The notes under the pieces: model-generated
What the model was told of the DNA's origin: nothing
The model's input: the letters and a program-made list of their open reading frames with translations, nothing else
Database searches by the model: none
Sequence record: MN642089.1
Strand: one strand, 5' to 3'
Source: Klebsiella phage N1M2
DNA length: 64,000 nt
Shown here: in pieces, positions 6,394 to 53,157 of the stretch
Position numbering within the stretch: the stretch's first letter is position 1
Layout of the letters: each line of letters begins with the position of its first letter
Translations under genes and position numbers: made by a program

Positions 6394-6425
6394 GAAATAG
6401 ATATTATTAGATTGAATAACCCAAC
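6394..6425 (+). promoter_or_regulatory. conserved AT-rich promoter-like motif (ATATTATTAG..TGAATAAC)
   Basis: member of an 8-copy motif family; about 25 bp upstream of the 6447 gene. Confidence 0.4.
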
Positions 6426-6446
6426 ATTATTTTAAAGGAGTTTAGA

Positions 6447-7058
6447 ATGACCTTGATCAATAAAGCATTTGCTCAACAAGCCAAAGAAGAAATCATTAAA
6501 CACCTCCGTACTCAGCTGGAAGGTAAGGCAAATAGCAATACCTTTAACCTGAAAGATTCGGGTATTACAGTCACTATCCGAACCACCGCTAACCCTCACA
6601 CCAAGTTGACCAAGTTCGAAGTTTATGTCTTTGATCGAATGGTGGGAAGCGGGGAAGTTAAGTTTGACAAAAAGATCCAGTTAGAAAAGTCTTTTGTTGA
6701 AACTTTACCTGATTTCATCATGACTCATTTGCTTGGGTACATTATCGATGATTCTGGAACTGCCGAAGCTATTGACAATATGCTTCGTGGAATTACTTCT
6801 GGTACTGAAGTGGAACATCCATTTGGAATGAGTATTAAGTTCCATAGCGATGATGATCACCAGGTATTAATGATCACTAAAGGTAAAGATGTCCTCTATG
6901 CCTTAGAAGAGGCAGTTAATCTCAATGAGGGTATCGGGACCGATCTGTTTACTCCAGTCGAGCAACTTAAATATCGGATTAACAAAGTTCTCGCCCATTA
7001 CACCATTCGTGAAGACTTTGGTGTCGAGTATGACTTTGGTACTGGTGCACAATTTTAA
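6447..7058 (+). CDS. hypothetical protein
   Basis: 203 aa; AAGGAG RBS. Confidence 0.55.
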   Translation: MTLINKAFAQQAKEEIIKHLRTQLEGKANSNTFNLKDSGITVTIRTTANPHTKLTKFEVYVFDRMVGSGEVKFDKKIQLEKSFVETLPDFIMTHLLGYIIDDSGTAEAIDNMLRGITSGTEVEHPFGMSIKFHSDDDHQVLMITKGKDVLYALEEAVNLNEGIGTDLFTPVEQLKYRINKVLAHYTIREDFGVEYDFGTGAQF

Positions 7059-7073
7059 TTTAAGGAAATAAAA

Positions 7074-7706
7074 ATGATCGTTAGTAAAGAGTGCCTGCGT
7101 AAGCTGGCAGAGTTAACTATCTCCCGTTTAGTTATTGATGGAACTCAAATCGCTTGGTCTGGTGGTTATCAGATCAATTTACTTTCTGGTAACATTGACA
7201 TTCTCATTGATGTGAAGTTATCAGAAATTGATGATTATGGTGTCCGATTGGCACTTCATCATCAAGGAACTACATTGGGTATGGTAATCATTAAAGATTG
7301 CCGGATGTTCACCCGTGACGCACTCAAAGAAGAATTGGGTAAATGGGTGGAACAAACAAAGACTTACCTTATTAATAACTACGCTAAATGGTTAGTAGGT
7401 AAGTACATCAAAAATGATTTACAGGTCAAGCATTGGACTTGTGCCGCATCAACCAATGACAAAATTGGCTCCATGGTAATTTGTGACGTTCGCTTTAAAG
7501 CAAAAGTCCAAACCAATACGGCATGGTTACAAGTCGAAGATAAAGACGTTGTAATCTACAAAGTGGAGCGATCCAATTTCCTGAACATGACAACCAAACA
7601 AGGTTGGCAGGGAATGAACATCAATACTGTTACTGCTGAATTAGGCCGTGTTATTTCTACACTGCTTTTCCAGCGTGATAATTTTGTTATACCGGTAACG
7701 TTGTAA
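7074..7706 (+). CDS. hypothetical protein
   Basis: 210 aa; AAGGAAA RBS. Confidence 0.55.
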   Translation: MIVSKECLRKLAELTISRLVIDGTQIAWSGGYQINLLSGNIDILIDVKLSEIDDYGVRLALHHQGTTLGMVIIKDCRMFTRDALKEELGKWVEQTKTYLINNYAKWLVGKYIKNDLQVKHWTCAASTNDKIGSMVICDVRFKAKVQTNTAWLQVEDKDVVIYKVERSNFLNMTTKQGWQGMNINTVTAELGRVISTLLFQRDNFVIPVTL

Positions 7707-8026
7707 TGGCACTACCCAAGAAACATTTACCACGAGTAACTAAATTCGTGGAGATCGTTTTGGGGATGGTGGTAAGAGAAGAATTATCCAGGAACTTCTA
7801 TAAACGAGGTGTTCTGGATAGTAACTATGTACTGACGTTGGAAAACAACATTCTTCTCCCTCCATATAACGATGACCGCATTGAGTTCATTGCTGAAGTG
7901 AATGACAAGAAAGCTGGACCATTCACTATTACCGGTAAGGACTTAGCCGAACATCACCTTGATCCTAAACTTGTTAAAGAAGTGGTTCAGGGAATTATGA
8001 AAATCCGCATTAAGGAAATAAAATGA
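7706..8026 (+). CDS. hypothetical protein
   Basis: 106 aa; overlapping start and stop. Confidence 0.5.
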   Translation: MALPKKHLPRVTKFVEIVLGMVVREELSRNFYKRGVLDSNYVLTLENNILLPPYNDDRIEFIAEVNDKKAGPFTITGKDLAEHHLDPKLVKEVVQGIMKIRIKEIK

Positions 8027-8727
8027 AGTTTACTGTTAAAGAGCTAATGGCTGCTGAACCACAAATGGTGGAAGTCATCAAAGTCTTAGTTCGCAAGATG
8101 ATGATCTTAAATGATCTGCAACAGGAATCCATGGAAACAGTAATCGAGTTCCCAATCATTCCAGACGCACCGGAGCATCCTAAGCTTGTCTTCAAGATCA
8201 AGAAAAATTCATTGCGAACTCTCGGTATTGATGTCAAGGAGCAGATCACTGCTACAGTAAATATCCTTGCTCGCTTACCATGTGTTTTCAAAATGGAAAA
8301 GGAAGACATTGAACGCGGGTATTGTAAAGAAGAAGATATCGAAAGGATCTCCAAAGCCTATCTTCGTGAAATTGCCATGGGAATGTCAACCCATTGGTTA
8401 AATGACTCCGGTTATTTAGAACAGGCAATGAAATACTTGGATAATGACGAGATCCAAGAACTTCGTGATCAGTTTGATGGAATGATCGATGTTCATTATA
8501 ATGACACCGGAGCATCCATTGCTTTACTAAGCAGTCGTGGTGAACCTATTGCCACTGAAGCTAAATTTGCCAAGGTGGATATTGATGGATTCAATTTCTG
8601 TACCAAAGATAGATTCAAAGAGTTCGTCAAGCAAAAGCTTCCGAACTATATTCGTTATGGCTGGGCATTTAGCGGTCATTACGAAATCTGGAAATCTCCA
8701 ATCACTAAACCTGTAGAGGAAATCTGA
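8023..8727 (+). CDS. hypothetical protein
   Basis: 234 aa; overlaps the upstream stop by 4 nt. Confidence 0.55.
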   Translation: MKFTVKELMAAEPQMVEVIKVLVRKMMILNDLQQESMETVIEFPIIPDAPEHPKLVFKIKKNSLRTLGIDVKEQITATVNILARLPCVFKMEKEDIERGYCKEEDIERISKAYLREIAMGMSTHWLNDSGYLEQAMKYLDNDEIQELRDQFDGMIDVHYNDTGASIALLSSRGEPIATEAKFAKVDIDGFNFCTKDRFKEFVKQKLPNYIRYGWAFSGHYEIWKSPITKPVEEI

Positions 8728-8728
8728 A

Positions 8729-9190
8729 ATGCTGACTCTGAAAAATAAATTAGCTATCCTGTTTGATAACGAACAAGATCGTGAAGAACTGGAAACCCTG
8801 GTTCATACTGCTCGTACCACCATCATCCGCCGTACACTTCGTGATATCATCAATAATTCTTCTGCAATGGGTATTGGTGATCTGGAAGAAGGTTCCGCAC
8901 TGATCACTGAAGAAGAACTGGCTTCCGGCGTACCCGTAACGTTTGATCTGCTTCAGGTAGATACTCCAATCATCGTTCGTGCAACTATTCAGCGTTATGG
9001 TGATGTGGGTAGTAACTACGTCACACTTCAAATCGATGTTAAATTGAGTGAGCGCAAGCCAAGCTACCTGATGCAACATAACGTCACTACTCTGTTTGTA
9101 GAGTCGGTATCAGTACCTCGTCTGTGGAAACGTATCGATCGCATTCTGAAAGATGTTCCATCCCTGGCCGCACCACTGTTGGCTAACTAA
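8729..9190 (+). CDS. hypothetical protein
   Basis: 153 aa; host-preferred codons by eye (CTG, CGT, GGT). Confidence 0.55.
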   Translation: MLTLKNKLAILFDNEQDREELETLVHTARTTIIRRTLRDIINNSSAMGIGDLEEGSALITEEELASGVPVTFDLLQVDTPIIVRATIQRYGDVGSNYVTLQIDVKLSERKPSYLMQHNVTTLFVESVSVPRLWKRIDRILKDVPSLAAPLLAN

Positions 9191-9195
9191 ATAAC

Positions 9196-9224
9196 TGGGG
9201 AGGTCAACCCTCCCTAATTTTAAT
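9196..9224 (+). terminator. rho-independent terminator
   Basis: GGGGAGG-tcaa-CCCTCCC hairpin then TAATTTT. Confidence 0.6.
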
Positions 9225-9241
9225 AGATCAAGGAAATAGAA

Positions 9242-9568
9242 ATGAAAATCGCATCTGAGAAAATCGCCCGCACCGTAGCTAAACACGCAAATGCCTTTGC
9301 TAAATTCGATTCCAAGTTGGGATCCACTGTCTCCATCATGCTGGCAGATGGCGAAACTAACCGCACCCTGCAATCTAAACTCTACGGCTACAACTCTAAT
9401 CGTACCGGCATCATTATCGAAGTCCGTATCGATGGGTTACTGTTGGATCGCGTTACTCTGACTCGCCCTCAACCGCAGGGTGATTTCCAACATAAGTTTA
9501 AAGTTGATTACACCAAGCTGTACCACATTGCCGCCAAAGAAGGCAACAAAGCTCCCGTAGACGAATAA
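9242..9568 (+). CDS. hypothetical protein
   Basis: 108 aa; AAGGAAATAGAA RBS; host-like codon bias. Confidence 0.55.
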   Translation: MKIASEKIARTVAKHANAFAKFDSKLGSTVSIMLADGETNRTLQSKLYGYNSNRTGIIIEVRIDGLLLDRVTLTRPQPQGDFQHKFKVDYTKLYHIAAKEGNKAPVDE

Positions 9569-9577
9569 GGTGGAATT

Positions 9578-10033
9578 ATGCAACGATACGAGTTTACTAT
9601 TGAGAAGGGTACGCTGGTAGTCCACGATCAAGTAACTAACGGGTCGTTGCGTATTATTTTCAAACCTTTAGGTAAACCGACGATCTCCCCAGCTTTAGAA
9701 GCTTGGAACGATCTAGAAACATCACTCAACTCAGGGAAACTTGAGTTGGGTTTGTTCGGTGTAAATACGATCACTGAACGTAAAGGCTTTAAGTTAGAAG
9801 GTAAGGTCGTGCTGTCATCATCTCACCTTTATGACTGTGAAGTACGCAACGGCAATCTTCATATGGTGTCATTCAAACAGAAGACACTTATCTCTGAATC
9901 CACATTACGATATATGGGTTCTAACAAATTCGGTTTAGTTGCTTTTAAAGACTGTTTCTTTAAAAGTAATCCAGAAGGTGGTTTTAAAAGTAGAACCACT
10001 TCTTACTTCAAAAACAAACTAGTAGAGGTTTAA
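9578..10033 (+). CDS. hypothetical protein
   Basis: 151 aa. Confidence 0.5.
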   Translation: MQRYEFTIEKGTLVVHDQVTNGSLRIIFKPLGKPTISPALEAWNDLETSLNSGKLELGLFGVNTITERKGFKLEGKVVLSSSHLYDCEVRNGNLHMVSFKQKTLISESTLRYMGSNKFGLVAFKDCFFKSNPEGGFKSRTTSYFKNKLVEV

Positions 10034-10034
10034 A

Positions 10035-10538
10035 ATGAACAATTCTCAAGTAGGTCGTTGGAATGTAATCCTTGATGGTAAACTGATCAAAGTGGTTGAT
10101 CGTCAAACTGGCGGTGAGTTGAACATTCACACTACCCACCATCCAGATCCAGGTGAAAATGATCTTAACCCAACCATCGAGATCATTAACGATCTGATTG
10201 AACAGCTGGCTGAACATCGCCTTATTCTTCAGCTGATCGGTAAAGAAAACAACATCTATGTGACCGGAACTAATGTGGTACTGGATGGTAGTGTTTCACT
10301 GCATCGTTGCGATCTTCGTAACCCGCATCTGACTGATGTTGAATTGCGTATCGTCGACACACGCGAAGCCGATCAAGTTCGCATTAACAAATCTACGGTA
10401 TATGAATTCACTTCACCTAAACTTGAAAGTGAACTTCATATTTCCCACTGTCATTTCACTGGTGAACTCAAACCACGTGTCACTAGTGCTCGTACTGAGT
10501 TCTACCTGAATGAATGTCGTAATGGAGATATGTGGTGA
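10035..10538 (+). CDS. hypothetical protein
   Basis: 167 aa. Confidence 0.5.
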   Translation: MNNSQVGRWNVILDGKLIKVVDRQTGGELNIHTTHHPDPGENDLNPTIEIINDLIEQLAEHRLILQLIGKENNIYVTGTNVVLDGSVSLHRCDLRNPHLTDVELRIVDTREADQVRINKSTVYEFTSPKLESELHISHCHFTGELKPRVTSARTEFYLNECRNGDMW

Positions 10539-10879
10539 TAGAAATCAAAGATGGTCTGGTTGACATCTCTGTCTTTGTTACCTTTACCAGACCGATAATC
10601 GAAGGGGTGACAAAGGTACCTGGCGAATTAGGTTATGTTGTTCTAATGGACAAATTACCTAACCGCTTCCCAAATGGCATTGAGTCATTTAAGATGCACT
10701 TCTTGAATTACTTAGATAACCATAATTTACAGCAGGGATATCCATACAACTTAGTTGAGGATTTCCCTATCCGTGTTCTAAACTCTCTCCGCATCTTAAA
10801 ACTTGCAGGTTGTATCAAAGGGTACGACATTGACGATCGGGGAATTATTTCTTATTGCGAGGAAGATGAAGATGACTAA
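10532..10879 (+). CDS. hypothetical protein (acidic C-terminus)
   Basis: 115 aa ending EEDEDD. Confidence 0.5.
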   Translation: MVIEIKDGLVDISVFVTFTRPIIEGVTKVPGELGYVVLMDKLPNRFPNGIESFKMHFLNYLDNHNLQQGYPYNLVEDFPIRVLNSLRILKLAGCIKGYDIDDRGIISYCEEDEDD

Positions 10880-12623
10880 TACTGCTAAAGACATTATCGG
10901 CGCACTTATTTACAACACTAGTGTTCAGTTAGATTTCCCTGATCACAAAAATAAAGAAGGTAAAGTCGACCCTGACAATATCGTAGCCAACTTTGATATG
11001 GTAGAAAGTGGGTACTTGCAGTTTCAGGGTAAAATTTATAGCAAAGATGAACTTACGTCTCTCGTTAACCAAGCGATCTCTCATCGCAATGGTAGTATTC
11101 TTATTGACATCCTTAAGGAATCTGGTAAGATTAAAGACTTCCCTCCGGCGTTTATGGAGAAACTTTATATCACTGCATTTGAGCAAGCTGGTTTTAGTTT
11201 ATACCCTGTTTCCAACCGTAAAGAAATCGATGGTAAGTTATTCGACGTTCCCGAAAAATACCGTACCGGTGTTGGGTATCCTTCAGATAAAGAAGTGGTC
11301 GCTCTTTGCCATTTCTACCTGAAAGGTATCAAGGGTTACGAAGACCCAGAGTCTAAGAAAACCTATCGCAACAAACTGTTTAACCTGTTGCATGTTTATG
11401 CGCACTTGCAGGAAAGTGTTTTGACAGAATCGCTGGGTGTTGAATGGGTTGCCAACTTTAAAGAAGGCAATAAAACATTTGAAGATTTCAAACAGGCTAT
11501 CGATATGGCTACTCAAGGGGAATCCCTTAAATACACTCGTGAAGAACAACCGTATATTTATTTCCAAGGGCGTGTTCATTTGAATGGCCCAGTAGCGATA
11601 CATTCTCCAAATGACCCTGATGAAGAAATCAAGTTCTTGACTAACATCATGGAAAACACTGAAGATCAAGAAAGCGTGGTATTTACCAAGGCCATCGCTT
11701 TTATTCATCGCAGTGCATTCCAACAGGAAATCTATCATTTCCTAACCAGCCTGTATGATGAAAATGAACAGTACTGGCTTGCGGATAATCGCCAACGCGC
11801 TGACTTTGTTTTCAACCTAGTTGGGCGCTATATGGAAGAGTGTCGTGCTAAAACTAAAATCGCATCCACTCGTTATTCTGAACAACCACGTGACCCACAA
11901 CCTACACAAGGAAAAGAACAAATGTTTAATAGCAATCTGACACAAGCGATCCAATTCCTGGCTCATGCCCGTGGCGTGTCGGTAGAAACTTTAGTTGGGG
12001 AACTGAAACAGCAACTTGGTAACAAACAAGTTACTGAGCAACCTAAAGTTCAAATCTCTGGTCCTGATGGTGAAATGCTCGATCAGCTGAAACAAATCTT
12101 CGGTGATGATTGTGTCATCGTTCCTATCTCACAGGGCGATGATATTTCAGAAGCTATTGCCAAAGCTATCGGTAATAAGAAACCTAGCAAAGAACAAGAG
12201 CTGGAGAAAGGTCTGGATGACCTTACCAGTCGTTGGGCTGAAATCCTGGGTGTCACTGATCCAGAAGCTATCGCGCATCTTCGTGCTGCTGCAGCCAAAA
12301 GTGTTCAGCCAAAGGACGAAGTTAAACGTCCTATTACTACTGAAGTCAGACATGCCAGAACTATGGAGTTTGAAGTTCTTGGCGAACATAACGAAGTAGA
12401 AGAACGTTATCGTGGCCTCTGGAATGAAACCACCAAACTGCTGACTATTAATTATAAATCAGTTGGGATGGACTCATATAGTCAGTTAGTTTGTATTCAG
12501 TTTATGGACTACTCTGATGCTGTCTCTACATTTATCGGAATGTGTCATAACTACGGCATCAAGTCAGTTCGCGAAATCATCCAGGATTTTGTTGAAGCTT
12601 ATAACGGTCACTTCATCGAATAA
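10866..12623 (+). CDS. hypothetical protein (~585 aa)
   Basis: ATG at 10866/10872 overlapping the upstream stop (track start 10803 runs deep into the previous gene); ends at a perfect palindromic terminator. Confidence 0.5.
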   Translation: MKMTNTAKDIIGALIYNTSVQLDFPDHKNKEGKVDPDNIVANFDMVESGYLQFQGKIYSKDELTSLVNQAISHRNGSILIDILKESGKIKDFPPAFMEKLYITAFEQAGFSLYPVSNRKEIDGKLFDVPEKYRTGVGYPSDKEVVALCHFYLKGIKGYEDPESKKTYRNKLFNLLHVYAHLQESVLTESLGVEWVANFKEGNKTFEDFKQAIDMATQGESLKYTREEQPYIYFQGRVHLNGPVAIHSPNDPDEEIKFLTNIMENTEDQESVVFTKAIAFIHRSAFQQEIYHFLTSLYDENEQYWLADNRQRADFVFNLVGRYMEECRAKTKIASTRYSEQPRDPQPTQGKEQMFNSNLTQAIQFLAHARGVSVETLVGELKQQLGNKQVTEQPKVQISGPDGEMLDQLKQIFGDDCVIVPISQGDDISEAIAKAIGNKKPSKEQELEKGLDDLTSRWAEILGVTDPEAIAHLRAAAAKSVQPKDEVKRPITTEVRHARTMEFEVLGEHNEVEERYRGLWNETTKLLTINYKSVGMDSYSQLVCIQFMDYSDAVSTFIGMCHNYGIKSVREIIQDFVEAYNGHFIE

Positions 12624-12632
12624 CAAAATTAA

Positions 12633-12696
12633 GTAATAATGCTCTAGGTACCCAATTGGGTACCTAGAGGTTATTCTTTTCTATTTTCTTTTTTGG
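12633..12696 (+). terminator. rho-independent terminator (perfect 28-bp palindrome)
   Basis: CTCTAGGTACCCAATTGGGTACCTAGAG then T-rich run. Confidence 0.7.
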
Positions 12697-12712
12697 TAAA
12701 GTTATAAAATTT

Positions 12713-12742
12713 CAAACAAATATTATCCTCATGTATAACGTG
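12713..12742 (+). promoter_or_regulatory. conserved AT-rich promoter-like motif (AATATTATCC..ATGTATAACG)
   Basis: variant of the ATATTATTA-TGTATAA family; precedes the 12756 ORF. Confidence 0.35.
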
Positions 12743-12755
12743 GAGATATCAATTC

Positions 12756-13196
12756 ATGAGTTTAAATAAAACGAGTGTAGAGAATCAGATCATGGGCGGC
12801 ATAGCAATTATTATGCAATCCATAAGGGATAAAACATCTGATCTATATAAAGAAGCGTGTGCTTATTCTAATATGGAAATACCCAACCTATATATGGTAA
12901 TATCTAAGTACACCATTCATGAACCTGGGTTGATTGGTTATTTCTCTATTGGATTTCAAACACCTAACCACAAACATGTCACAGATGTAATGGAGGTAGC
13001 GTATACCACATCGGGAACTTTCTATAGATTCCAAGGTGTCAGCATAAGAATAGCTTGTACCGAAACTATGGAAGTTATGAGCACTCAAGAGCAAATGAAC
13101 TGGATGAAAATAATAGTTCAATCTAATACTGAATTATTAGCAGTTCTAGAAGCTAATGAGGAATTTAATAATGGGAATAAGAAAAACAGTAAATGA
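12756..13196 (+). CDS. hypothetical protein (atypical codon usage)
   Basis: 146 aa; AT-rich with ATA/AGA codons unlike its neighbours. Confidence 0.4.
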   Translation: MSLNKTSVENQIMGGIAIIMQSIRDKTSDLYKEACAYSNMEIPNLYMVISKYTIHEPGLIGYFSIGFQTPNHKHVTDVMEVAYTTSGTFYRFQGVSIRIACTETMEVMSTQEQMNWMKIIVQSNTELLAVLEANEEFNNGNKKNSK

Positions 13197-13545
13197 GATC
13201 TTAGAGGATGCCGTATTCCAAAGAGATCCCAAACCTTATAAAGATGTTTACTTTATCAAGGTACTGAACCCAGGCGATCGTAAAAGTATCTTTGTCAGTT
13301 TTAGATACAAGATCGCTTCTGATATATGTTTGATTTGCCGTATGGAAATCAATCTGGAATATCCAGAGAAAAACACAAGTACCGCAATCAGCATATTGAA
13401 AATAAGAGAACGTGAATCTTTCACCTTCTTCAGAAAACGCCAAGCGATTGCTGGAAGGACCATAATAGATATTGTCCAGAAAACCATCGCACCTATGTTA
13501 ATCGATAAAATCACCAAAGCTAAGGAAATGAACAATGTCAATTGA
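13156..13545 (+). CDS. hypothetical protein (atypical codon usage)
   Basis: 129 aa; overlaps the previous ORF by 41 nt in another frame; same AT-rich composition. Confidence 0.4.
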   Translation: MRNLIMGIRKTVNEILEDAVFQRDPKPYKDVYFIKVLNPGDRKSIFVSFRYKIASDICLICRMEINLEYPEKNTSTAISILKIRERESFTFFRKRQAIAGRTIIDIVQKTIAPMLIDKITKAKEMNNVN

Positions 13546-13939
13546 AAAAGCTACCTCAGCAGTAAAAATCTTCGCTACTCGTAAACTGGTAGAAATCATG
13601 GAAGAATGCAAAGGTAAGCAAATTCCGAATATGTGGAAGTTTGAAGACACTGTCGGGTTCACTGTCAACATCACCGAAGGCGATCTGAACTTTACTATCC
13701 AAGCGGCAGCGGCTCCGGTAGCCGAAGCAGGCCCTGGTAATTTCCTTATTCGGATTCAATCTACCTTTGTTGGGAAAACTGTATTCAAACAAGGTTACAA
13801 CTTCCCAGCCACGCCTGTTGGTCAAATGGTTGTTATGGACTTCCCTCTGTATGCTGAAGATGAACAGGAACTCACAGATGGTATTGCTCAGATCATCCAA
13901 GATGAAGCTGATAACATTCTGTGTCAGATACTGCAATAA
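13535..13939 (+). CDS. hypothetical protein
   Basis: 134 aa; host-like codon bias returns. Confidence 0.55.
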   Translation: MSIEKATSAVKIFATRKLVEIMEECKGKQIPNMWKFEDTVGFTVNITEGDLNFTIQAAAAPVAEAGPGNFLIRIQSTFVGKTVFKQGYNFPATPVGQMVVMDFPLYAEDEQELTDGIAQIIQDEADNILCQILQ

Positions 13940-14081
13940 GTTCGTAGAACACGTTGTAATCAATTGTTTTAAGTAATACTACTGTTTGTATCATGTAGGT
14001 AGAAAAGTCCCTTAGATTTCGATCTGTGTGACTTTATCTCCATCCGACAAAAACCCAATCTCATTTAAAGGAAATGAAATT

Positions 14082-15032
14082 ATGTCTAAAGACTTTAACC
14101 TGTATCACTTTGGCGGCACTGGTATCAACATTCTTAACCGTTACCTGGAGCAAGGTAAGAACTCCCGCTTTATTGATCAGGTGGTGGCGATGGATACTTC
14201 TGAAGCTAACCCGATTACTGATGGTATTTATCCATTGGAACGTCTGGAAGGTGTAGAAGGTTCTGGCGGTAACCGTAAAGCACATGCTGATAAGTATGCT
14301 GACTTTGTTAAACAGGTATTCGCCAAGTACAAACCAAACAAAGTAAACATTCTGGTTTACTCACTGTCTGGTGGTACCGGTGCATCAATGGGTCCTTATG
14401 CATTGCGTTATCTGCTGCAGAAGAAAATCCCTACACTGGTAATTTGTATCGGTGACAAGTCAACCTTTAATGAAGAGAAGAACACCGTAGAAGCACTGGG
14501 TTCAATGTATAACCAGATCAAGACTGGCTCTCCAGTTCTGTTCAACTACATTGAAAACGGTCAGACCATTTCTCAGGGTCAGGTTAACCAACGTGCTGTT
14601 GGTGAAATTGATAATGCAATCATGATGTTCAACATGGAAAACGAACGCATCGATTACGCAGACATCAAAAACTTCTTCTTCTTTACCGATGTGACTCAGG
14701 CAGATCCAATCATGACTCAGGTGACTTTCCTGGCAGAAGGTGATCTGGGTCGCTATGATCGTAAGCCGGTTGCAGCAATCAGCCTGTATAACAACATCGA
14801 CGAAATCCGCGCACCGTTTGAAAATATGCTTTATCGTAAATCTGGTTTGTTCGGTGAAAGTTTCTCCGGTATGACTGTTCCGGTCCACGCAGTCCTGGAC
14901 CACGGTGATACTATTCAGTCACTGAAAACTCTGATCGAAGATAAAGAAACTAAGAACAATGAACTGGCTGGTCAATTCCGTAACAAGGAAACTGATCTGT
15001 TCGCTGATTCTGATGACGACGGTATGATGTAA
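14082..15032 (+). CDS. phuZ: PhuZ-like phage tubulin (tubulin/FtsZ family GTPase)
   Basis: ATG at 14082 with AAGGAAA RBS (track start 14028 is a GTG extension); GGTGINIL N-terminal motif; tubulin signature SGGTGASMGP; acidic C-terminal tail DSDDDGMM as in PhuZ; ~316 aa. Confidence 0.8.
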   Translation: MSKDFNLYHFGGTGINILNRYLEQGKNSRFIDQVVAMDTSEANPITDGIYPLERLEGVEGSGGNRKAHADKYADFVKQVFAKYKPNKVNILVYSLSGGTGASMGPYALRYLLQKKIPTLVICIGDKSTFNEEKNTVEALGSMYNQIKTGSPVLFNYIENGQTISQGQVNQRAVGEIDNAIMMFNMENERIDYADIKNFFFFTDVTQADPIMTQVTFLAEGDLGRYDRKPVAAISLYNNIDEIRAPFENMLYRKSGLFGESFSGMTVPVHAVLDHGDTIQSLKTLIEDKETKNNELAGQFRNKETDLFADSDDDGMM

Positions 15033-15041
15033 TAACTGGAG

Positions 15042-15068
15042 GCCCTGGCTAGTCCAGGGCTTTTTATA
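15042..15068 (+). terminator. rho-independent terminator
   Basis: GCCCTGG-ctagt-CCAGGGC then TTTTTAT. Confidence 0.7.
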
Positions 15069-15362
15069 TTGCCTATGAAGATCTTATTTAATTTAGCAAA
15101 TCAACGCGGAGCATTGTCCGAAATATCTAAGAACGATATTGGGACAGCACATGCTATTTTATCCAGAGTCTGTCTAGACCAAGGAATCCCAGTAGAACAT
15201 CATCACTTTGATGCCAACATCTCTTTAGAACATGCCATCGTGTATGAAAGCGTAAAGGCATATGCTGAAGAGAAGTTAATGTTTATCCCTACCCCTGACG
15301 TTGCGGTCTTATCTGATCTCGGCAATCTTCAATTCCAACTCACTTTACATAATCGGGAATAA
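15069..15362 (+). CDS. hypothetical protein
   Basis: 97 aa. Confidence 0.45.
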   Translation: MPMKILFNLANQRGALSEISKNDIGTAHAILSRVCLDQGIPVEHHHFDANISLEHAIVYESVKAYAEEKLMFIPTPDVAVLSDLGNLQFQLTLHNRE

Positions 15363-15365
15363 GTC

Positions 15366-15842
15366 ATGTTTAATATCGATAAGCCTACATTGTTTACGGC
15401 TATCGCCATCTCTCTCGAACCCAATCTACGCGATGTAGAAGATAAGAAGCCAGAATACGTTAAGTATTTCCATGTTGTACTTGACATGGTTCTTGGTGTT
15501 ATGAATAGCAAAATCAGAAACATCGATGATGCTATTGATGAGCAATATGGACTTTATCCTGAAGATAAAAATCTTCCCTGGCTTGCTGATACAGTTCGTC
15601 AGTTAGTTGTCGATATCAAATGTCAGTTTATTCAAGCTGGGTTTGATAGTCGCCTGAAATATAAAGTTGTAACCCGTCAGATCGGCATCCACACTAAACT
15701 GTATGGTATCGCAATGGACCTGGATGCAACTTTAGCTGCAATGGCGGATACTCTTCTTGATCCTAAAGAAGATGTCGATCAAACTCTGATAGTGTCTGAG
15801 AACCCAACTTATGAGCAGCTCGAAGCAGCATACAACTGGTGA
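15366..15842 (+). CDS. hypothetical protein
   Basis: 158 aa. Confidence 0.5.
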   Translation: MFNIDKPTLFTAIAISLEPNLRDVEDKKPEYVKYFHVVLDMVLGVMNSKIRNIDDAIDEQYGLYPEDKNLPWLADTVRQLVVDIKCQFIQAGFDSRLKYKVVTRQIGIHTKLYGIAMDLDATLAAMADTLLDPKEDVDQTLIVSENPTYEQLEAAYNW

Positions 15843-16380
15843 GTTTATTCACCTAGGTAAGTTCGATAAGGAGATTGAAGCTTATCTGGAAACAAAAGAA
15901 CATTTAGCATCTACTACCATTATGGAAGATGATAAACCAAGTATCGTAGAAGCTTTGCGTATTTGGTTGGTTAAGAATGTTGGATGTTTTAATATCATCG
16001 GCGATTATTATCAAACAGTCAATCTGAAACTTTGGTATGATCACGATGGACTCACGGAAGAGTTTGATGAATTACTTTTAATGTTCCGAGATTGGTTGAA
16101 TATGACACAAGCTCTGGATACCAAGAAAGTTTATAACTTGTTACGTTATATTAGACCTGACACGTTTATTCTTTTCGAAGGTGAAGTTCCAGTAGAGTTG
16201 ATCCCTCCTCCTATCGAAGAACCGGTTGATCACGAAGTACAAGAAGTCATTAGTTGTATCCAGGAATTTGAACTACTCTTGAAAAAGAGATGTAGCGATA
16301 ACTTTGCTGTTGAGCATTTTATTAGCGATCTATTCCCAACTACTACTACCCATGACTTGATCAAAAAGTATATGGTTTAA
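15811..16380 (+). CDS. hypothetical acidic protein
   Basis: 189 aa; start uncertain (ATG 15811 overlaps the upstream gene by 32 nt; alternative ATG at 15922). Confidence 0.4.
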   Translation: MSSSKQHTTGEFIHLGKFDKEIEAYLETKEHLASTTIMEDDKPSIVEALRIWLVKNVGCFNIIGDYYQTVNLKLWYDHDGLTEEFDELLLMFRDWLNMTQALDTKKVYNLLRYIRPDTFILFEGEVPVELIPPPIEEPVDHEVQEVISCIQEFELLLKKRCSDNFAVEHFISDLFPTTTTHDLIKKYMV

Positions 16381-16388
16381 GGAGTCCT

Positions 16389-16691
16389 ATGGCTAGGATG
16401 TTATCAGTTAACATCTACCCATTACTTCGAATAGTAAAACGGTACGACCTAGACCAGGACCTCTTCTTTAGAATCATTCTGAATTTCCTCTCGCATCGTC
16501 GGGAGGAAATTCTTAATATTCAACTGTCCAAATGGTTTAGCTCATTTGATGTCTCATTAAAAAGTGAGATGAAACCTATTATATACGAACTCCTAAGTGA
16601 GTTAGACTATTCGGATAATGTGGAAGATTATTTCATCTTAAATGGTCGTTTCTATATTAAGGAAAACACTAATGTTACAGAATCAGAATGA
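16389..16691 (+). CDS. hypothetical protein
   Basis: 100 aa; GGAG RBS. Confidence 0.5.
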   Translation: MARMLSVNIYPLLRIVKRYDLDQDLFFRIILNFLSHRREEILNIQLSKWFSSFDVSLKSEMKPIIYELLSELDYSDNVEDYFILNGRFYIKENTNVTESE

Positions 16692-16989
16692 GCAGCCAAT
16701 CGCCCTGTTCTCGCACACCATGACTTTCCCTGGAGTGCCATTAGAAAATTTAGTATCATCCATATCGCTTTTATTATCTGCGTATGGTGTCTCTCACCAA
16801 CTACCAGTTTCACCCACCTTCACATCGGAAGGATTGACCAGTGGTGACAATAATCGTGACCAACGTTTCGTAACTGAATACATGCAGTTCAAGTTAATGT
16901 TGGAAGATCTATCCCGTCAATATACAACTGTACAGTGTACCGCACAATCTAACGGAGCATCGGTATACCTAAGGTTCAGTTGTTACTAG
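16672..16989 (+). CDS. hypothetical protein
   Basis: ATG at 16672 with AAGGAAAAC RBS (track start 16642 lies further inside the upstream gene). Confidence 0.45.
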   Translation: MLQNQNEQPIALFSHTMTFPGVPLENLVSSISLLLSAYGVSHQLPVSPTFTSEGLTSGDNNRDQRFVTEYMQFKLMLEDLSRQYTTVQCTAQSNGASVYLRFSCY

Positions 16990-16998
16990 GAGAGCGTA

Positions 16999-17613
16999 AT
17001 GTACGTTCATATAAACAACTTTGATTATGATGAGTTGCTGAATAACTTAGTTCAGCACTATCATCTAAGTGATGCCCCAATAACTAATGAGATCATTAGC
17101 AAGATCTTTGAAGAATTGGCAGAGCACTATAAATTGAACCAGCGTGAAACTATGACTGAAGATGAAATTGCTTTGGTTGAAGAGTTTATGCGAATTCATG
17201 GTCAGTGGTCTGACTTCCAACCTGGTGATGAAGCTGATATGTTCCTGGAAACTAAAGGAATGGATATTAGTGAATCTCTGGCGGTAATGGAAGGGTTGTT
17301 CTTAGAAGGTGTTACTGAAGATGATGAACTTGATCCGCTTTATGATATAGCAATTAAGTTTACTCAATTCGATTTCACTGATGAAGACTCTATTGGTGAA
17401 TTCAGTGCCTACCTATCTGATCTGATTAGTAAGTATAACAACATTCAGTTTAATGATGCTGAACTGTGTGTGTTAGGACACATCGAACGCTCTTTGGATA
17501 GTTCTGAAATATTAACTGGTATTGAAGTTCTTCCAGTTGCAGGTAAGGTTGTTAAGTATGGGGATACTTTGATAACCTTCCCGATTATCCTGATAAAGGT
17601 TTCTAAACCATGA
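16999..17613 (+). CDS. hypothetical highly acidic protein
   Basis: 204 aa, very rich in D/E (e.g. DDELDPLYDIA, FDFTDEDSIGEF); GGAG RBS. Confidence 0.5.
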   Translation: MYVHINNFDYDELLNNLVQHYHLSDAPITNEIISKIFEELAEHYKLNQRETMTEDEIALVEEFMRIHGQWSDFQPGDEADMFLETKGMDISESLAVMEGLFLEGVTEDDELDPLYDIAIKFTQFDFTDEDSIGEFSAYLSDLISKYNNIQFNDAELCVLGHIERSLDSSEILTGIEVLPVAGKVVKYGDTLITFPIILIKVSKP

Positions 17614-18041
17614 GCGATTTGAACTTACTCCAGAAGAATGACATCATCAACTTCGATATGATCCGTCCTGGTATCTTTGGCGCTCAATACAAGAGCGCTT
17701 TGATTACCGGTATTGTTGATTATAACACTGCCCGGATTATCGATCCAGATGTATATGCCAAACACCAGGCTTTCTATCCTTTCTTTAAAGATTCGGTAGA
17801 TAACGTTAATAACCCAGAAATCTATAACTATCTGATTCTGCAATTGGACCCAACCAAAGCTGATCGTATTGTTATTGGGTTCCCGTGGATTGATAAGGAT
17901 TCACTGAAAACAATCCAGTCTCGTTACGCAACAGTTATTATTCAGAACTTCCAGGAATATCAACGTGCGCCATTAGTTGATTTCTTAGAAGGTATGAACG
18001 TAACCTATACATTAGTAATCGAAGATACAAACAAGAAATAA
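17610..18041 (+). CDS. hypothetical protein
   Basis: 143 aa; overlaps the upstream stop by 4 nt. Confidence 0.5.
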   Translation: MSDLNLLQKNDIINFDMIRPGIFGAQYKSALITGIVDYNTARIIDPDVYAKHQAFYPFFKDSVDNVNNPEIYNYLILQLDPTKADRIVIGFPWIDKDSLKTIQSRYATVIIQNFQEYQRAPLVDFLEGMNVTYTLVIEDTNKK

Positions 18042-18049
18042 TTATCAGA

Positions 18050-18106
18050 TTACTGAGCCTACCATAAGGTAGGCTCGGTAATCTATTTACCCAATTATTT
18101 TTTTTT
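18050..18106 (+). terminator. rho-independent terminator
   Basis: GAGCCTACC-ataa-GGTAGGCTC hairpin then a long T run. Confidence 0.65.
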
Positions 18107-18128
18107 TCTCTTAATGAGGGAATCGATT

Positions 18129-20275: not shown

Positions 20276-21367
20276 TTATTTCAAACGACTAACTTCTTCA
20301 TGCAACATGGAGAAATGCTTCCTCCATATAGGGTCTTTGATTTGGTTTTCCTGAGATGTGACAGACAGTTGATAATAGAGTTTCAAGTCACTACGCAACT
20401 TACCATCTACAGCACCAATAAAGTTACTATACTCTAAATAAGGTTTAACCATCCCAAGAGAAGCAATAGTCCAAACCCAACTCATTTGAACAAAGAACAA
20501 TGACTTACCTGCTTGAGGGAATATCATCTTAGATTGATCAACTGAGATATTGGTAACAGCATTGACTTCGACAAAGTTAGTAAATGATTTCATCGGCTGG
20601 GATAACAGATAGCGATTCTTGAAATCAGTATAGTCAATTAAGTTTTGGAAATAAGGTTCCAAGTTAAATGGACCTTTCCTTACTTCTATTTTCCCAGCAT
20701 TACCATTCAGGTAATTATAGTTGGTCAGCTCATTGTGATACAAATAGAAGTTCATCAATGGCAAACCAGCTAAATAACCATGTGGACTATTACCCCATTC
20801 AACACCACGTTTGAGGTGTCTCCAATATCCTATTACAAGAGCGTACACATCAATCTGAGCGATCGTATAAGCTGGGTTAGCTAACTCATAGACTTTAGTA
20901 TTGATTAGGTCTATGGTGTTCCAGCGCTGTTTTGTGTCAGTTGTGTAAATAGGAAAGATTGGAACTAAGGTATTTATTTCGTTATTGAAGTAACCATTTA
21001 TTTGCGAAGCAGAAGGTTTATCAAATGGAACAACCAAAAGAGTATTGTGATTCTTTTCAGGATACAAACTCAACGGATGGTTCTTTCCTCTATTATAGAG
21101 GGATGTAAAATTGACTGCACTTGCGTATTGTTGAATGTGAGTATCAATTACATTAATTAAGTAGTTGGGTTCCCATTCTACGTTCACGGAAAACATTAGC
21201 AGAAATTGAACTAATGGATTTTCATTGGGAAGAACTCTATTGCCAAGTTTGATCCAGTCTTCATACCGGTCATCATTCCTGGCCATAATACGTCTCAGGT
21301 TTCCGAGTGTACCCCATTCCCTGACTGCGTAGTTTAACCCATTAGGCGAAAGCTTAAAGTAAGACAT
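20276..21367 (-). CDS. hypothetical protein
   Basis: ATG (revcomp) at 21367 with GAGG RBS, MSYFKLSPNG...; the track start 21412 is an upstream extension. Confidence 0.5.
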   Translation of the reverse strand: MSYFKLSPNGLNYAVREWGTLGNLRRIMARNDDRYEDWIKLGNRVLPNENPLVQFLLMFSVNVEWEPNYLINVIDTHIQQYASAVNFTSLYNRGKNHPLSLYPEKNHNTLLVVPFDKPSASQINGYFNNEINTLVPIFPIYTTDTKQRWNTIDLINTKVYELANPAYTIAQIDVYALVIGYWRHLKRGVEWGNSPHGYLAGLPLMNFYLYHNELTNYNYLNGNAGKIEVRKGPFNLEPYFQNLIDYTDFKNRYLLSQPMKSFTNFVEVNAVTNISVDQSKMIFPQAGKSLFFVQMSWVWTIASLGMVKPYLEYSNFIGAVDGKLRSDLKLYYQLSVTSQENQIKDPIWRKHFSMLHEEVSRLK

Positions 21368-21533
21368 TAATAGAAGCCTCTGGAATATCTTCATTAAAAA
21401 ATTAATGAACATATCTATTATATGTAAAAATAAACTTTCAAGGTTAATCCTTGAAAGCTAGACGTGAGTCGCATGTCCATTTGAATGTATTCATACGATT
21501 TAACGTTGCAATTTTATCATCTCTAAAATATTT

Positions 21534-21568
21534 GAAGTCTATATTATTAGAGTGTATAAGGAAACAGA
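21534..21568 (+). promoter_or_regulatory. conserved AT-rich promoter-like motif (CTATATTATTAGAGTGTATAAGG)
   Basis: family member about 60 bp upstream of the chimallin-like gene; 19/19 identity to the core of the 31351 copy. Confidence 0.5.
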
Positions 21569-36505: not shown

Positions 36506-36527
36506 TTAATTTTGAGCCAAAGATAAT

Positions 36528-41588: not shown

Positions 41589-41592
41589 GCTA

Positions 41593-41634
41593 TTACTCAC
41601 CTTCCTTAATTGGAGGGTGGGTAATAAATTTTTA
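41593..41634 (+). terminator. rho-independent terminator
   Basis: TTACTCACCTTCC-ttaatt-GGAGGGTGGGTAA then AATTTTT. Confidence 0.6.
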
Positions 41635-41661
41635 AGTAGATATTATTTATAGGAGTTAGAC

Positions 41662-41931: not shown

Positions 41932-41941
41932 TATCTGGGTG

Positions 41942-41965
41942 GGAGACTTCGGTCTCCCTTTATGT
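41942..41965 (+). terminator. rho-independent terminator
   Basis: GGGAGAC-ttcg-GTCTCCC then TTTATG. Confidence 0.65.
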
Positions 41966-46146: not shown

Positions 46147-46152
46147 CACATA

Positions 46153-46207
46153 CCTACTCACCCAATTAAGGGTGAGTAGGATTTATATGCTTTCTTTTAT
46201 TTTGTTT
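46153..46207 (+). terminator. rho-independent terminator
   Basis: CCTACTCACCC-aattaa-GGGTGAGTAGG then ATTTATATGCTTTCTTTTATTTT. Confidence 0.75.
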
Positions 46208-46240
46208 CAGACCTATATTATTAATATGTGCTTACACATA
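46208..46240 (+). promoter_or_regulatory. conserved AT-rich promoter-like motif (CAGACCTATATTATTAATATGTGCTTAC)
   Basis: family member upstream of the HNH endonuclease gene. Confidence 0.45.
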
Positions 46241-46347
46241 TTAAGTTAGTATGAAGGCTATGCATATCTTTTTACTACGAAGAGTATTTTAATACTATGT
46301 GTTAGATAAAATGACTAATAATGAAATATTAACAAATAGGAAGCATA

Positions 46348-47412
46348 ATGACCATACTGATTTATAAAGATACAAATTTCGATATGTTCACTCCAATTCA
46401 ATCTGTATTGGGAGTAGATGATTTAAGTGAAGAAGAAAAAGTAAGAGCCAGAGAAGAACATATCAAAGAACAACTATTGAAAAACCCTCGCTATTACTGC
46501 TGGGATTATTTAAATTACTATAGAACGACTAGAGATAGTGATCTAAAAGAAGGGGAACTCTATCAACCATATATCATGGTTTCATCTAGAGGTGAGATAG
46601 CCTGGTGGATGCCAGAAGAAAATGAAGTTCATGTTACCACCGGAACTCATTCTGCTAATTACCTGATGACGCATATATATGACGATGAAAAGGAAGCATT
46701 TAAAAATATCTACATTCATCGTGCCGTTGCTTCTACCTTTATAAGTAAAAAGGAATCGCATAAAGATATACCTTACTCTAAACTTCAGGTTAACCATAAA
46801 GATGGTAATAAATTATGCCCTCATTTCGGTAATCTAGAATGGAGTACCCAATCTGAAAATAGACAACATGCAATAGACACTGGATTAGTTAAGTCTGGAA
46901 TTGATGATCCAAATACTAAACCAGTACTTGGAACAGTCGTAGTAGATAGCATGTGGAAGGGAACACAGTTTGTTATTTATGGTAGAACCGCTATAAAGAA
47001 TCTTGGTTTAGATCCAGCATCCATTCAACAGACAGTGTCAGGTAAAGCTAAAACTACATATGGATGTTCATGGTCATATATAACCAGGGAAGAAGCTGCC
47101 ACGTATACAAACACAATACCACCTCAATTACTTGATAGAATGGTTAATGATGGTGTAACTTTACTATCTACGACCAAACCAGTTATGGGGACTATAGTAA
47201 TTCCTGGAAAACACCAAGGTGATAAGTTCGTATGCTACGGTGGTAAAGAACTAACTAAGTATGGTTTCCAGCAAGCCCATGTGAGCAGGGCCACCAAAGA
47301 TCCATCAATAGTTAGAAGCGGATGTGTTTGGGAGTATGTTGATTTAAGAAAGGCAGAGACATTACCTAGAGGAATAACTGAAGAACAAAGAGTTACACTA
47401 TTTGGTAAGTAA
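46348..47412 (+). CDS. HNH homing endonuclease (free-standing)
   Basis: HNH_3-type motif HRAVASTF...VNHKDGNKLCPHFGNLEWSTQSENRQHA; AT-rich with ATA/AGA codons unlike its neighbours; AGGAAG RBS. Confidence 0.75.
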   Translation: MTILIYKDTNFDMFTPIQSVLGVDDLSEEEKVRAREEHIKEQLLKNPRYYCWDYLNYYRTTRDSDLKEGELYQPYIMVSSRGEIAWWMPEENEVHVTTGTHSANYLMTHIYDDEKEAFKNIYIHRAVASTFISKKESHKDIPYSKLQVNHKDGNKLCPHFGNLEWSTQSENRQHAIDTGLVKSGIDDPNTKPVLGTVVVDSMWKGTQFVIYGRTAIKNLGLDPASIQQTVSGKAKTTYGCSWSYITREEAATYTNTIPPQLLDRMVNDGVTLLSTTKPVMGTIVIPGKHQGDKFVCYGGKELTKYGFQQAHVSRATKDPSIVRSGCVWEYVDLRKAETLPRGITEEQRVTLFGK

Positions 47413-49674: not shown

Positions 49675-50429
49675 TGTCCAAGAAAAACACCGCTCAAGTT
49701 AAAGCTGCTAAGCGTAATGCTCGTGCAAAAGCTAAAGCAAAATCAGTAGCAAAAGCTAAAGCTTGTCCTCAAGCTATCCAGCAACGCAAGCTGCGTGGTG
49801 CATTGGGTGCAGATGGACGTATCGCTGATTTCGATACTGTTCTGGAGAAAGCAGTTCTCGATATCAACAAAGGTAAGAAAGTTACCTCTGAGTTCAAGAC
49901 CACAACTGATATGATCGCTGGTATTAAAGAAGCAATCGGTCAGGTGTTTAAACTGTATTGCTACGTTACTCTCGGTAAAACTCTGGCAGATGCTGGAGCA
50001 ATGGAACATCAGGTAACCATTCCGATTGATGATATCTCCCGTGTACTGATGAACTTCGATAGCCGTATTGGTCGTCTGGAATTCATGGATAAAACTCCAG
50101 TTGAAGAACGTGACAATGTTGCTATTGAAACCGAAGCTCTGGATATCGGTACTAACCTGGCAAGCATCTCTGAAGATCTGTACGGTGAAGTTGCTCGTAT
50201 GGAAACCCATAGCTTGATCATGGAAGAAGCTATTTCCCGTATGGCTCTGGAAATCACTGAAGGTGAACCAGAACAACGTCGCATGGCTGCACTGCAAGCT
50301 GTGGCTTACAAATACCTGGCTGAGCTTAAGCTGCATGATGCCCGTGTTGAGAAAGAACAACGTGAAGCAGCTGACCCAAGTGAACACCTGACAGGTGTTG
50401 ATGAAGCACCATTTGTTCCACAAGTTTAA
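49675..50429 (+). CDS. hypothetical protein with Lys/Ala-rich basic N-terminus
   Basis: ATG at 49675 (track start 49215 is a long antisense extension across the minus-strand gene); MSKKNTAQVKAAKRNARAKAKAKSVAKAKA; host-like codon bias. Confidence 0.5.
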
Positions 50430-50461
50430 TTCATCCATTTATCCTTATATAAGGTATTAAC

Positions 50462-52075: not shown

Positions 52076-52185
52076 ACGACTCTAACTTTGATCCCCGTGT
52101 TCTGACACGCTGTAGTGAACTCTTCATCGCAGCGGCCAGGGAAACTGACCATGTGAAATTAGCCGTCTTAGAAAGGCGGCTTTTC

Positions 52186-52518
52186 ATGATCAAGTATGGT
52201 TATATCGCAGAGCAAGAATCGATGAGTTCCCATCTGCGGTATAATACTAATACTAGAGATTACTTCCACCCGTGGGCAGCTAAGGTCATAGGCCACACAT
52301 TCGGGGCTAGAGAGTATAGTAAATTCATTCCTTTCAAAGACTATCTTGAAATGCCAGTGGATTTTATAGAGGACTTCATTGAAGGTTTAGCAGAAGGTGA
52401 ACAAGCTGTCGTCAAAGCTAAACTGGAAGCCGCCAAACGTGAAGCTTCTAAACAAGGTGGTGTTGGTGATCCTCACCAAGCCGCTATCGCTTTAGCTCAA
52501 AAGAGCAATAAAGGATAA
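52186..52518 (+). CDS. hypothetical protein
   Basis: ATG at 52186 (track start 52153 is a GTG). Confidence 0.4.
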   Translation: MIKYGYIAEQESMSSHLRYNTNTRDYFHPWAAKVIGHTFGAREYSKFIPFKDYLEMPVDFIEDFIEGLAEGEQAVVKAKLEAAKREASKQGGVGDPHQAAIALAQKSNKG

Positions 52519-52523
52519 CTATT

Positions 52524-53066
52524 ATGGGTAACGCATACCAACCTCCTAAGTTGGAGAAACGTGAGAATACTGTTGTTAAACAGGTTAAAGATGAAGCCCA
52601 AGGTGATCGTGTACTGGGTGTGAGTTCTGTTAACATGCAAATGTCTGCTGATGATATCTATAAAAAGAACATCACTGACTTTGCTGAATTCCTGAAAGGT
52701 AACATTGCCGCTGGTACTTTGGAAGAACGTCAGAAGTTCCAACGTACTTTCTTTAACTCTATCCCGGCTATGCTTCGTCTGAGCGATGCTCAGGTTAAAG
52801 CGGTCCTGGATCACTTCCTGGTGACCATTGCTGAAAACCGTCAGGTATTCGATTACAGCGTAGTTCTGTCCCCACTGTACACTATCGAATCTCAACTGAA
52901 TAAAGTTGAAGTAGAACGTTACAAGCGCTTCATGCTGTTCATTATCCTGCTGTCTGATAATGCTCGTGATCGTCAACGTTTCCTGGCTAACTTTGACATG
53001 ACTAAGTTTACTAGCATGTTTGATCCGGTCACCAAACAACGTCTGACCAACTACGTATACCGTTAA
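52524..53066 (+). CDS. hypothetical protein
   Basis: 180 aa; host-like codon bias. Confidence 0.55.
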   Translation: MGNAYQPPKLEKRENTVVKQVKDEAQGDRVLGVSSVNMQMSADDIYKKNITDFAEFLKGNIAAGTLEERQKFQRTFFNSIPAMLRLSDAQVKAVLDHFLVTIAENRQVFDYSVVLSPLYTIESQLNKVEVERYKRFMLFIILLSDNARDRQRFLANFDMTKFTSMFDPVTKQRLTNYVYR

Positions 53067-53071
53067 TAAGC

Positions 53072-53110
53072 TCCCTACTCCCTCCGAAAGGAAGGGGTAG
53101 GGGTTTTATG
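53072..53110 (+). terminator. rho-independent terminator (CCCTAC-CCTCC stem family)
   Basis: CCCTACTCCCTCC-gaaag-GAAGGGGTAGGGG then TTTTATG. Confidence 0.7.
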
Positions 53111-53125
53111 TTGTCTATTGATTTT

Positions 53126-53157
53126 CAAGCAGATATTATTAACATGTATAGGTAATG
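53126..53157 (+). promoter_or_regulatory. conserved AT-rich promoter-like motif (CAAGCAGATATTATTAACATGTATAGGTAATG)
   Basis: family member immediately upstream of the 53170 gene. Confidence 0.45.

Follow-up and report, generated by a model that had tools for sequence, protein, structure and literature searches.

A short AT-rich motif recurs upstream of genes along a 64,000-nucleotide stretch of DNA from Klebsiella phage N1M2 (sequence record MN642089.1; the whole stretch is called the window here), which raises the question of which RNA polymerase (RNAP) reads it. A first, sequence-only reading had listed eight copies, built of an ATATTA core followed by TGTATAA, and had considered two readers: a virion RNAP like that of phage phiKZ, or the host enzyme acting through an extended -10 element. 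We find it very probable that the copies serve as the early promoters of a nucleus-forming jumbo phage of the OBP-like (Petsuvirus) type, with the injected multisubunit virion RNAP as their most likely reader.

The window phage is a nucleus-forming jumbo phage of the OBP group, as indicated by the chimallin, PhuZ tubulin and split RNAP subunits that it encodes and by its identity to relatives. The window is ~88% identical to the Serratia phages vB_SmaM-Yubaba (hereafter Yubaba) and Sureiya, of the genus Petsuvirus; where they align, its identity to Pseudomonas phage OBP (~75%), Edwardsiella phage pEt-SU, Shewanella phage SXP01, Pantoea phage Survivor, Kosakonia phage Kc263 and Erwinia phage AH04 is 72-77%. 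Gene order is conserved between the window and Yubaba, Sureiya and OBP.

Nine co-oriented copies precede genes in the window

All eight copies listed by the sequence-only reading are present where it had placed them and align on ATATTA. A 36-nt weight matrix made from these copies scores them at 28.4-38.8 and finds a ninth + strand site (anchor 41640, score 23.6; spanning 41621-41657), which extends the count to nine. The best unrelated match scores 6.8, and a match at 10.3 is one of the real copies read in reverse complement. When both strands of the 64 kb were searched with the 24-nt OBP consensus TTTYARRYAKATATTATYWWADTG, allowing up to three mismatches, exactly nine sites were returned against 0.05 expected, and each of the nine departs from the consensus at one to three of the 24 positions. 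The string ATATTATNNNNNTG occurs seven times in the window against 1.12 expected, a count reached in none of 100 shuffles.

Every copy lies on the + strand, 5' of a + strand gene; neither the matrix nor the OBP-consensus scan finds a copy on the - strand of the window. The anchor stands 22-133 bp before the start codon, in close agreement with the intergenic, coding-strand position at 20-130 bp described earlier, and the start codon has a Shine-Dalgarno sequence in all nine cases. The copies had also been said usually to follow a terminator, and an intrinsic-terminator hairpin indeed lies within ~90 bp 5' of six of the nine. Five of these hairpins were flagged by the terminator scan (6346-6374, 12642-12669, 31243-31268, 41591-41626 and 46153-46180), and the sixth, 5' of copy 9 (53073-53102), comes from RNAfold. 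TATAWAAGG, considered as a second (middle or late) motif near ribosome-binding sites, is not enriched (2 occurrences against 1.2 expected), and an Rfam search of the window gave no match.

The motif extends to -32 and points to a start at a conserved G

The anatomy of the motif was derived from a pooled set of 28 non-orthologous sites, nine from the window and 19 from Yubaba; positions are numbered from the start predicted below. Within ATATTAT, five of the seven positions are invariant (28/28), the fifth is T in 23 sites and the last is T in 27. TTTCARRYAK stands directly 5' of this core. Farther upstream, an A at -29, 16 nt before ATATTAT, is found in all 28 sites, T occupies -32 in 19 of them, and positions -28 to -24 are nearly all A or T. 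On the 3' side, a G at core+7 is the most informative single position (27/28 pooled sites, 9/9 window copies), and the base before it, T(-1), is kept in 26/28. The core and the TG of the original description are borne out; the TATAA that follows TG is only weakly conserved (15-21 of 28 per position), and the upstream reach, with the invariant A 16 nt before ATATTAT and the T-rich block, had been understated.

The spacing ATATTAT-(6N)-G is exact in all nine window copies. The mapped early consensus of phage AR9 is AAATATATATTAT-(6N)-G(+1) (PMC5312081), and the same paper has transcription of phiKZ and phiR1-37 starting 6 nt after their core elements. Because the window motif matches the ATATTAT-(6N)-G of these mapped relatives, we place the start at the G and ATATTAT at -13 to -7. 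The TG would then be -1/+1, and TATAA would be the initial transcribed sequence rather than a promoter element. Counted from this predicted start, a promoter would consist of T(-32)-B-Y-A(-29), an A/T stretch, TTTCARRYAK at -23 to -14, ATATTAT at -13 to -7, five loosely conserved bases, T(-1) G(+1) and a weakly conserved W-A-T-A. The motif is centred near -10 in every profiled RNAP-encoding jumbo phage (PMC7598289), and the homologous motif marks the early class (PMC7598289, PMC5312081). It is from homology, and only from homology, that we infer early timing and the virion polymerase as reader.

The motif is that of OBP-type phages and resembles the phiKZ early promoter

The published description of N1M2 reports a promoter found by MEME, TBYAWWWWWTTTCARRYAKATATTATYWAAGTGWA, at 31 sites (PMC7058600). 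That paper gives the OBP promoter as BSHAWWWWWTTTYARRYAKATATTATYWWADTG, notes that it was judged phage-specific and early, and sets the N1M2 and OBP motifs beside those of 201phi2-1, EL and phiKZ (TATATTAC). The published string is the window motif position for position from -32 to +3. It likewise heads operons, with an RNAP beta subunit and unknown proteins downstream. We see no substantive difference between the published motifs and that of the window, the promoter being a bioinformatic prediction in all of them. The window copies match the consensus, carry the upstream T-B-Y-A and five A/T positions before TTT, and lie in an OBP-related genome. Judged by its sequence, the motif is of an already published kind, the predicted early promoter of OBP-type (Petsuvirus) phages.

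The features of the experimentally studied phiKZ/AR9/phiR1-37 class are present as well: a conserved AT-rich core, a G 6 nt downstream of the core, and an intergenic, co-oriented placement ahead of operons that include genes of the non-virion RNAP (nvRNAP). In phiKZ, early promoters with the core TATATTAC have been mapped at 28-32 sites by primer extension, differential RNA sequencing (dRNA-seq) and ONT-cappable-seq (ONT, Oxford Nanopore Technologies). The phiKZ genes gp54, gp58.1 and gp68 are each preceded by TTT(G/C)AGAT(T/C)-TATATTAC-N5-T-G, with the spacing seen in the window. The surroundings correspond too, the syntenic phiKZ region comprising a - strand structural gene, gp53, the chimallin gene gp54 and the nvRNAP gene gp55. 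The window's chimallin promoter TTTGAAGTCTATATTATTAGAGTG aligns with the gp54 site TTTGAGATTTATATTACTAAATTG without gaps and is identical at 18 of 24 positions, and gp54 has a primary start tied to the early motif (Wicke et al., PMC8244752). Window and phiKZ thus share the skeleton TTT(G/C)A..-TATATTA(C/T)-N5-T-G and the synteny before chimallin and the gp55 homolog. Together with the published alignment (PMC7058600), the gp54 match vindicates the resemblance to the phiKZ virion-RNAP early promoter that the sequence-only reading had suggested.

The two motifs are nevertheless distinct. The last base of the core is T in the window, and the C of phiKZ occurs there in only one of nine copies; positions -18 to -14 are GATT/C in phiKZ but RRYAK in the window; and the upstream element with the invariant A(-29) is specific to the clade of the window phage. 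The phiKZ sites are experimentally mapped, whereas those of the window are predicted from sequence. The AR9 element ATATTAT-(6N)-G is identical to that of the window, and in AR9, too, the G is the most conserved single position. AR9 differs in its uracil-containing genome, its Gram-positive host and its lack of a phage nucleus, and it has a longer upstream AT run where the window has TTTCARRYAK.

The placement of the motif is conserved among relatives

Whether the motif is distributed randomly with respect to gene starts was addressed in the complete Yubaba genome. Its scan gives 27 sites scoring at least 15.3, the next best match scoring 10.5. All 27 lie on the + strand, each in a gap between annotated genes where the next + strand coding sequence (CDS) begins 22-91 bp after the core, in a genome of which ~7% is noncoding; the placement is clearly non-random. 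A greedy open reading frame (ORF) caller put two window sites and six Yubaba sites inside ORFs. We rejected this placement as an artefact because the caller takes the longest possible start, and in the deposited Yubaba annotation none of the sites is ORF-internal.

Yubaba has orthologs of eight of the nine window sites. The sites before chimallin and before the ortholog of the gene at 31406 are kept in OBP, pEt-SU, SXP01 and AH04, and when the chimallin upstream regions of six phages are aligned, no invariant block is longer than the promoter, which is unchanged in Yubaba, OBP, pEt-SU, SXP01 and AH04. The site before the small ORF of copy 4 is kept in OBP and AH04 together with its private variant, a C at core position 7 (ATATTAC) and GATAAACCT downstream. 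Orthologous sites, with their site-specific variants, are retained in phages of five host genera. At one OBP locus (8488-8730), the annotated start of the CDS OBP_062 lies 20 bp 5' of the conserved promoter copy at 8508, so that the CDS contains the promoter; the gene probably starts farther downstream than annotated.

Scanning IMG/VR for the exact pattern TTTCARNYNKATATTATNNNNNTG returned at least 120 stretches. Contigs of at least 200 kb account for 34 of the 80 matches listed, several contigs being matched two or three times, and many of the listed stretches share flanks, typically TGTAAAA ~9 nt upstream and TTTCAATTAT before the core. About half of the listed matches lie on short or unrelated contigs and are compatible with chance; the informative signals are the enrichment on contigs above 200 kb and the shared flanks. 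The motif skeleton is thus common in uncultivated jumbo phages. A sister motif, TGTAAAA-N9-TTTCAATT(A/G)T-ATATTAT-N5-TG, occurs on many uncultivated contigs 210-330 kb long and is probably the early promoter of another jumbo-phage clade.

The virion polymerase is the most likely reader

In the scheme that we favour, the injected virion RNAP would initiate at each copy, and each copy would open a + strand unit, usually just after the terminator of the previous unit. These units would supply the products needed first: chimallin, the PhuZ tubulin, three nvRNAP subunits, small unknown proteins and an HNH endonuclease. The three nvRNAP genes are identified by homology to the subunits of the solved phiKZ enzyme (7ogp): 23590-25227 matches gp55 (E 1e-33), 36573-38681 matches gp71 (E 3e-35) and 38650-40671 matches gp74 (E 3e-22). 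Because the nvRNAP, with these three genes directly behind copies of the motif, cannot make itself, the reader must already be there at injection. In AR9, chloramphenicol does not prevent the accumulation of early transcripts (PMC5312081), phiKZ infection is insensitive to rifampicin (PMC13282480), and resistance to both drugs identifies the virion polymerase as the early reader of phiKZ and AR9 (PMC7598289, PMC5312081, PMC13282480).

Several points weigh against this assignment. The literature searched holds no transcript data for the window phage or any OBP-like phage, and we infer start, timing and reader alike. The virion polymerase genes are outside the window, Yubaba having further RNAP beta genes at 149382-155338. 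The leader of copy 7 would be only 9 nt, cutting into the Shine-Dalgarno sequence. Early promoters do not precede every nvRNAP gene of 201phi2-1 (PMC11512511), so gene identity alone is no proof of early timing. Last, TATTAT at -12 to -7 matches the sigma-70 -10 hexamer TATAAT at five of six positions, including the A and the final T, at the correct distance of 6 nt before the conserved G; there is a small chance of some host-polymerase activity at TATTAT.

With bacterial promoters the motif shares an AT-rich hexamer at -12 to -7 before a purine start. On a host reading the copies would be sigma-70 promoters, in which the (extended) -10 element is the TATAA(n) that follows TG, or else TATTAT takes that role behind an upstream TTG-type -35 element. 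A lax scan does flag three of the nine sites in the TATTAT register (26948, 36535 and 53133), and Wicke et al. (PMC8244752) say that the phiKZ early motif contains an 'extended -10 box'. Neither register is well supported by the alignment. For the TG-n-TATAA that had been proposed as a host extended -10 element, the spacer base is missing, TG running directly into the hexamer, and only 1 of 28 sites has T where T(-7) would fall; the TATTAT register lacks a TG at -15/-14, with A at -15 in 22/28. No -35 element stands at 16-18 bp, the nearest TTG-like block is 15 bp away, and six of the nine sites fail the lax 9-of-12 filter. As a family the copies show neither an extended -10 element, across the 28 pooled sites, nor a -35/-10 pair, in the nine window sites. 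The strongly conserved positions of the motif lie outside sigma-70 contacts, and a sigma-70 reader leaves the conservation at -29, from -22 to -14 and at +1 without explanation; phages that infect Pseudomonas, Klebsiella, Serratia, Edwardsiella, Shewanella and Erwinia all retain this string; and the rifampicin insensitivity of phiKZ infection argues against a host enzyme. Nor are sigma-70-like sites enriched in the window, where three counts gave 29 against 59, 43 against 49 and 44 against 51 expected from shuffles. We therefore regard host sigma-70 promoters as very unlikely. The first of these counts is an observation in its own right: the first 20 kb (1-20000) is depleted in sigma-70-like matches (29 against 59 +/- 8.6 expected).

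It is very unlikely, in our estimate, that the copies are middle or late promoters of the non-virion polymerase, or are read by a polymerase that a newly made phage factor has redirected. The 201phi2-1 nvRNAP genes that stand behind middle or late promoters (PMC11512511) speak for such a reader, but in the window the explanation is circular, with three nvRNAP subunit genes directly behind the motif. The phiKZ middle and late motifs bear little likeness to it, being a weak AT-rich element near -24 and T(-3)ATG(+1) (PMC7598289), and the homologous motif belongs to the early class in every profiled phage (PMC7598289, PMC5312081). The motif is also missing from the - strand, where the window has a virion structural gene (20276-21412, matching a family of virion structural proteins) and Yubaba has mostly genes for structure or replication; in the aligned region, Yubaba's annotation of this strand includes a DNA polymerase and more structural genes.

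That the motif is no promoter, being instead a protein operator or an RNA processing site in read-through transcripts, cleaved at the conserved G, is extremely unlikely: AR9 early 5' ends are poorly enriched by terminator exonuclease treatment (PMC5312081) and the motif would be AU-rich as RNA, but little read-through RNA is expected because most copies follow strong terminators, the corresponding 5' ends of phiKZ and 201phi2-1 were captured by triphosphate-selective methods, and conservation reaches 30 nt upstream with promoter-like -30, -20 and -10 blocks.

Nine predicted early transcription units

Reading by the virion polymerase would divide the + strand into units, for which copy spans are given below from -32 to +5 and leaders from the predicted G start to the ATG. 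Copy 1 (6382-6418, start G 6414; Yubaba ortholog at 196230) would give a 33-nt leader to the ATG at 6447 and a unit that runs from there to ~12623 and ends at the terminator 12642-12669. Copy 2 (12701-12737, start G 12733; Yubaba ortholog at 202653) lies a 23-nt leader ahead of the ATG at 12756, from which a + strand run includes the PhuZ tubulin (14028-15032) and a DNA polymerase gene (18114-20207). Copy 3 (21522-21558, start G 21554) would provide a 71-nt leader to the chimallin ATG at 21625, and its unit comprises chimallin (21625-23541) followed by 23590-25227, the homolog of the nvRNAP beta' subunit, phiKZ gp55. Chimallin and the HNH gene were both named as downstream genes in the sequence-only reading, and each does stand behind a copy.

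Two copies head tiny self-contained early units. Copy 4 (26929-26965, start G 26961, 49-nt leader), whose core TATATTAC equals the phiKZ octamer, precedes a 55-aa ORF (27010-27177) closed by the terminator 27186-27213. Copy 7 (41621-41657, start G 41653; Yubaba ortholog at 231644), in which GG replaces TG, would reach the ATG at 41662 through a 9-nt leader; the terminator 41591-41626 ends 14 bp 5' of its core, and its 89-aa ORF is closed by the terminator 41941-41958. Copy 5 (31336-31372, start G 31368) has a 38-nt leader to the ATG at 31406 and a unit, 31406-36085, closed by the terminator 36109-36136. Copy 6 (36516-36552, start G 36548; Yubaba ortholog at 226532) is without TTT at -23 to -21; its 25-nt leader ends at the ATG at 36573, and the gp71 homolog (36573-38681) and the gp74 homolog (38650-40671) make up its unit. 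Copy 8 (46196-46232, start G 46228) would give a 120-nt leader to the HNH ATG at 46348.

Copy 9 (53114-53150, start G 53146; Yubaba ortholog at 241868) has a 24-nt leader to the ATG at 53170 and a + strand unit spanning 53170-54539. It is the best match to the OBP consensus (one mismatch) and has the hairpin 53073-53102 and then GTTTTATG upstream. At this locus the promoter is conserved and the genes behind it are unrelated (window 53141-54587 versus Yubaba 241876-242844, with an extra Yubaba promoter copy at 242564), a pattern of a fixed early promoter with variable cargo.

Besides the early promoter, the chimallin upstream region (21413-21627) contains additional sequence blocks whose conservation spans six phages. 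The hairpin CTTTCAAGG..CCTTGAAAG (21433-21459) is one of them; it shows compensatory changes in OBP and AH04, and on the - strand it is followed by a T-run, just before the divergent virion gene. The others are ACGnGAGTCG and CATACGAT, and a perfect palindrome, TTAACGTTAA, lies within the predicted chimallin leader. The extra blocks may serve as another promoter, of the middle or late class, or as an operator. Elsewhere in the window, the palindrome CCTTATATAAGG (50443-50454) sits exactly between the - strand ORF 49743-50438 and the + strand gene that begins at 50462, overlapping both flanking ribosome-binding regions.

A probably mobile cassette carries copy 8

Copy 8 is part of a discrete + strand segment, 46147-47403, which contains the terminator hairpin 46153-46180, the promoter copy, the leader and a free-standing HNH gene (46348-47412, assigned by PHROGs and Pfam). 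The segment is absent from Yubaba. Compared with Sureiya in 200-bp bins it is 97.5-100% identical. Identity of the flanks is lower, 80-93%, but climbs to 93-96% next to the insertion, over ~600 bp on its left side and ~200 bp on its right. The HNH gene ends in codons (GGTAAGTAA) that mimic the last part of the gene upstream (GGTAAATAA), which leaves the junction of the cassette ambiguous by 9 bp. The 120-nt leader folds no better than shuffled sequence (z = -0.2). From these comparisons, the cassette looks like a homing endonuclease gene that moved recently, bringing along its own terminator and early promoter and co-converting the flanks.

In Yubaba a copy of the motif also precedes an 'endonuclease' gene (62756), and one AR9 early promoter is located within an intron. 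The promoter family may spread partly by riding on mobile genes, an idea that we hold tentatively and with some doubt.

Implications

The analysis yields a map of nine early transcription units, with predicted starts to the nucleotide, and places chimallin, PhuZ and three nvRNAP subunits behind the same promoter class as in phiKZ. It brings no new biology of promoter recognition, and the virion polymerase component that would read the -32 to +1 element is no more testable here than in OBP, N1M2 or phiKZ. If the arrangement of the HNH cassette is general, free-standing endonuclease genes of nucleus-forming phages would carry their own virion-polymerase promoter, which would allow expression within the first minutes of co-infection, at a time when the genomes are not yet enclosed.

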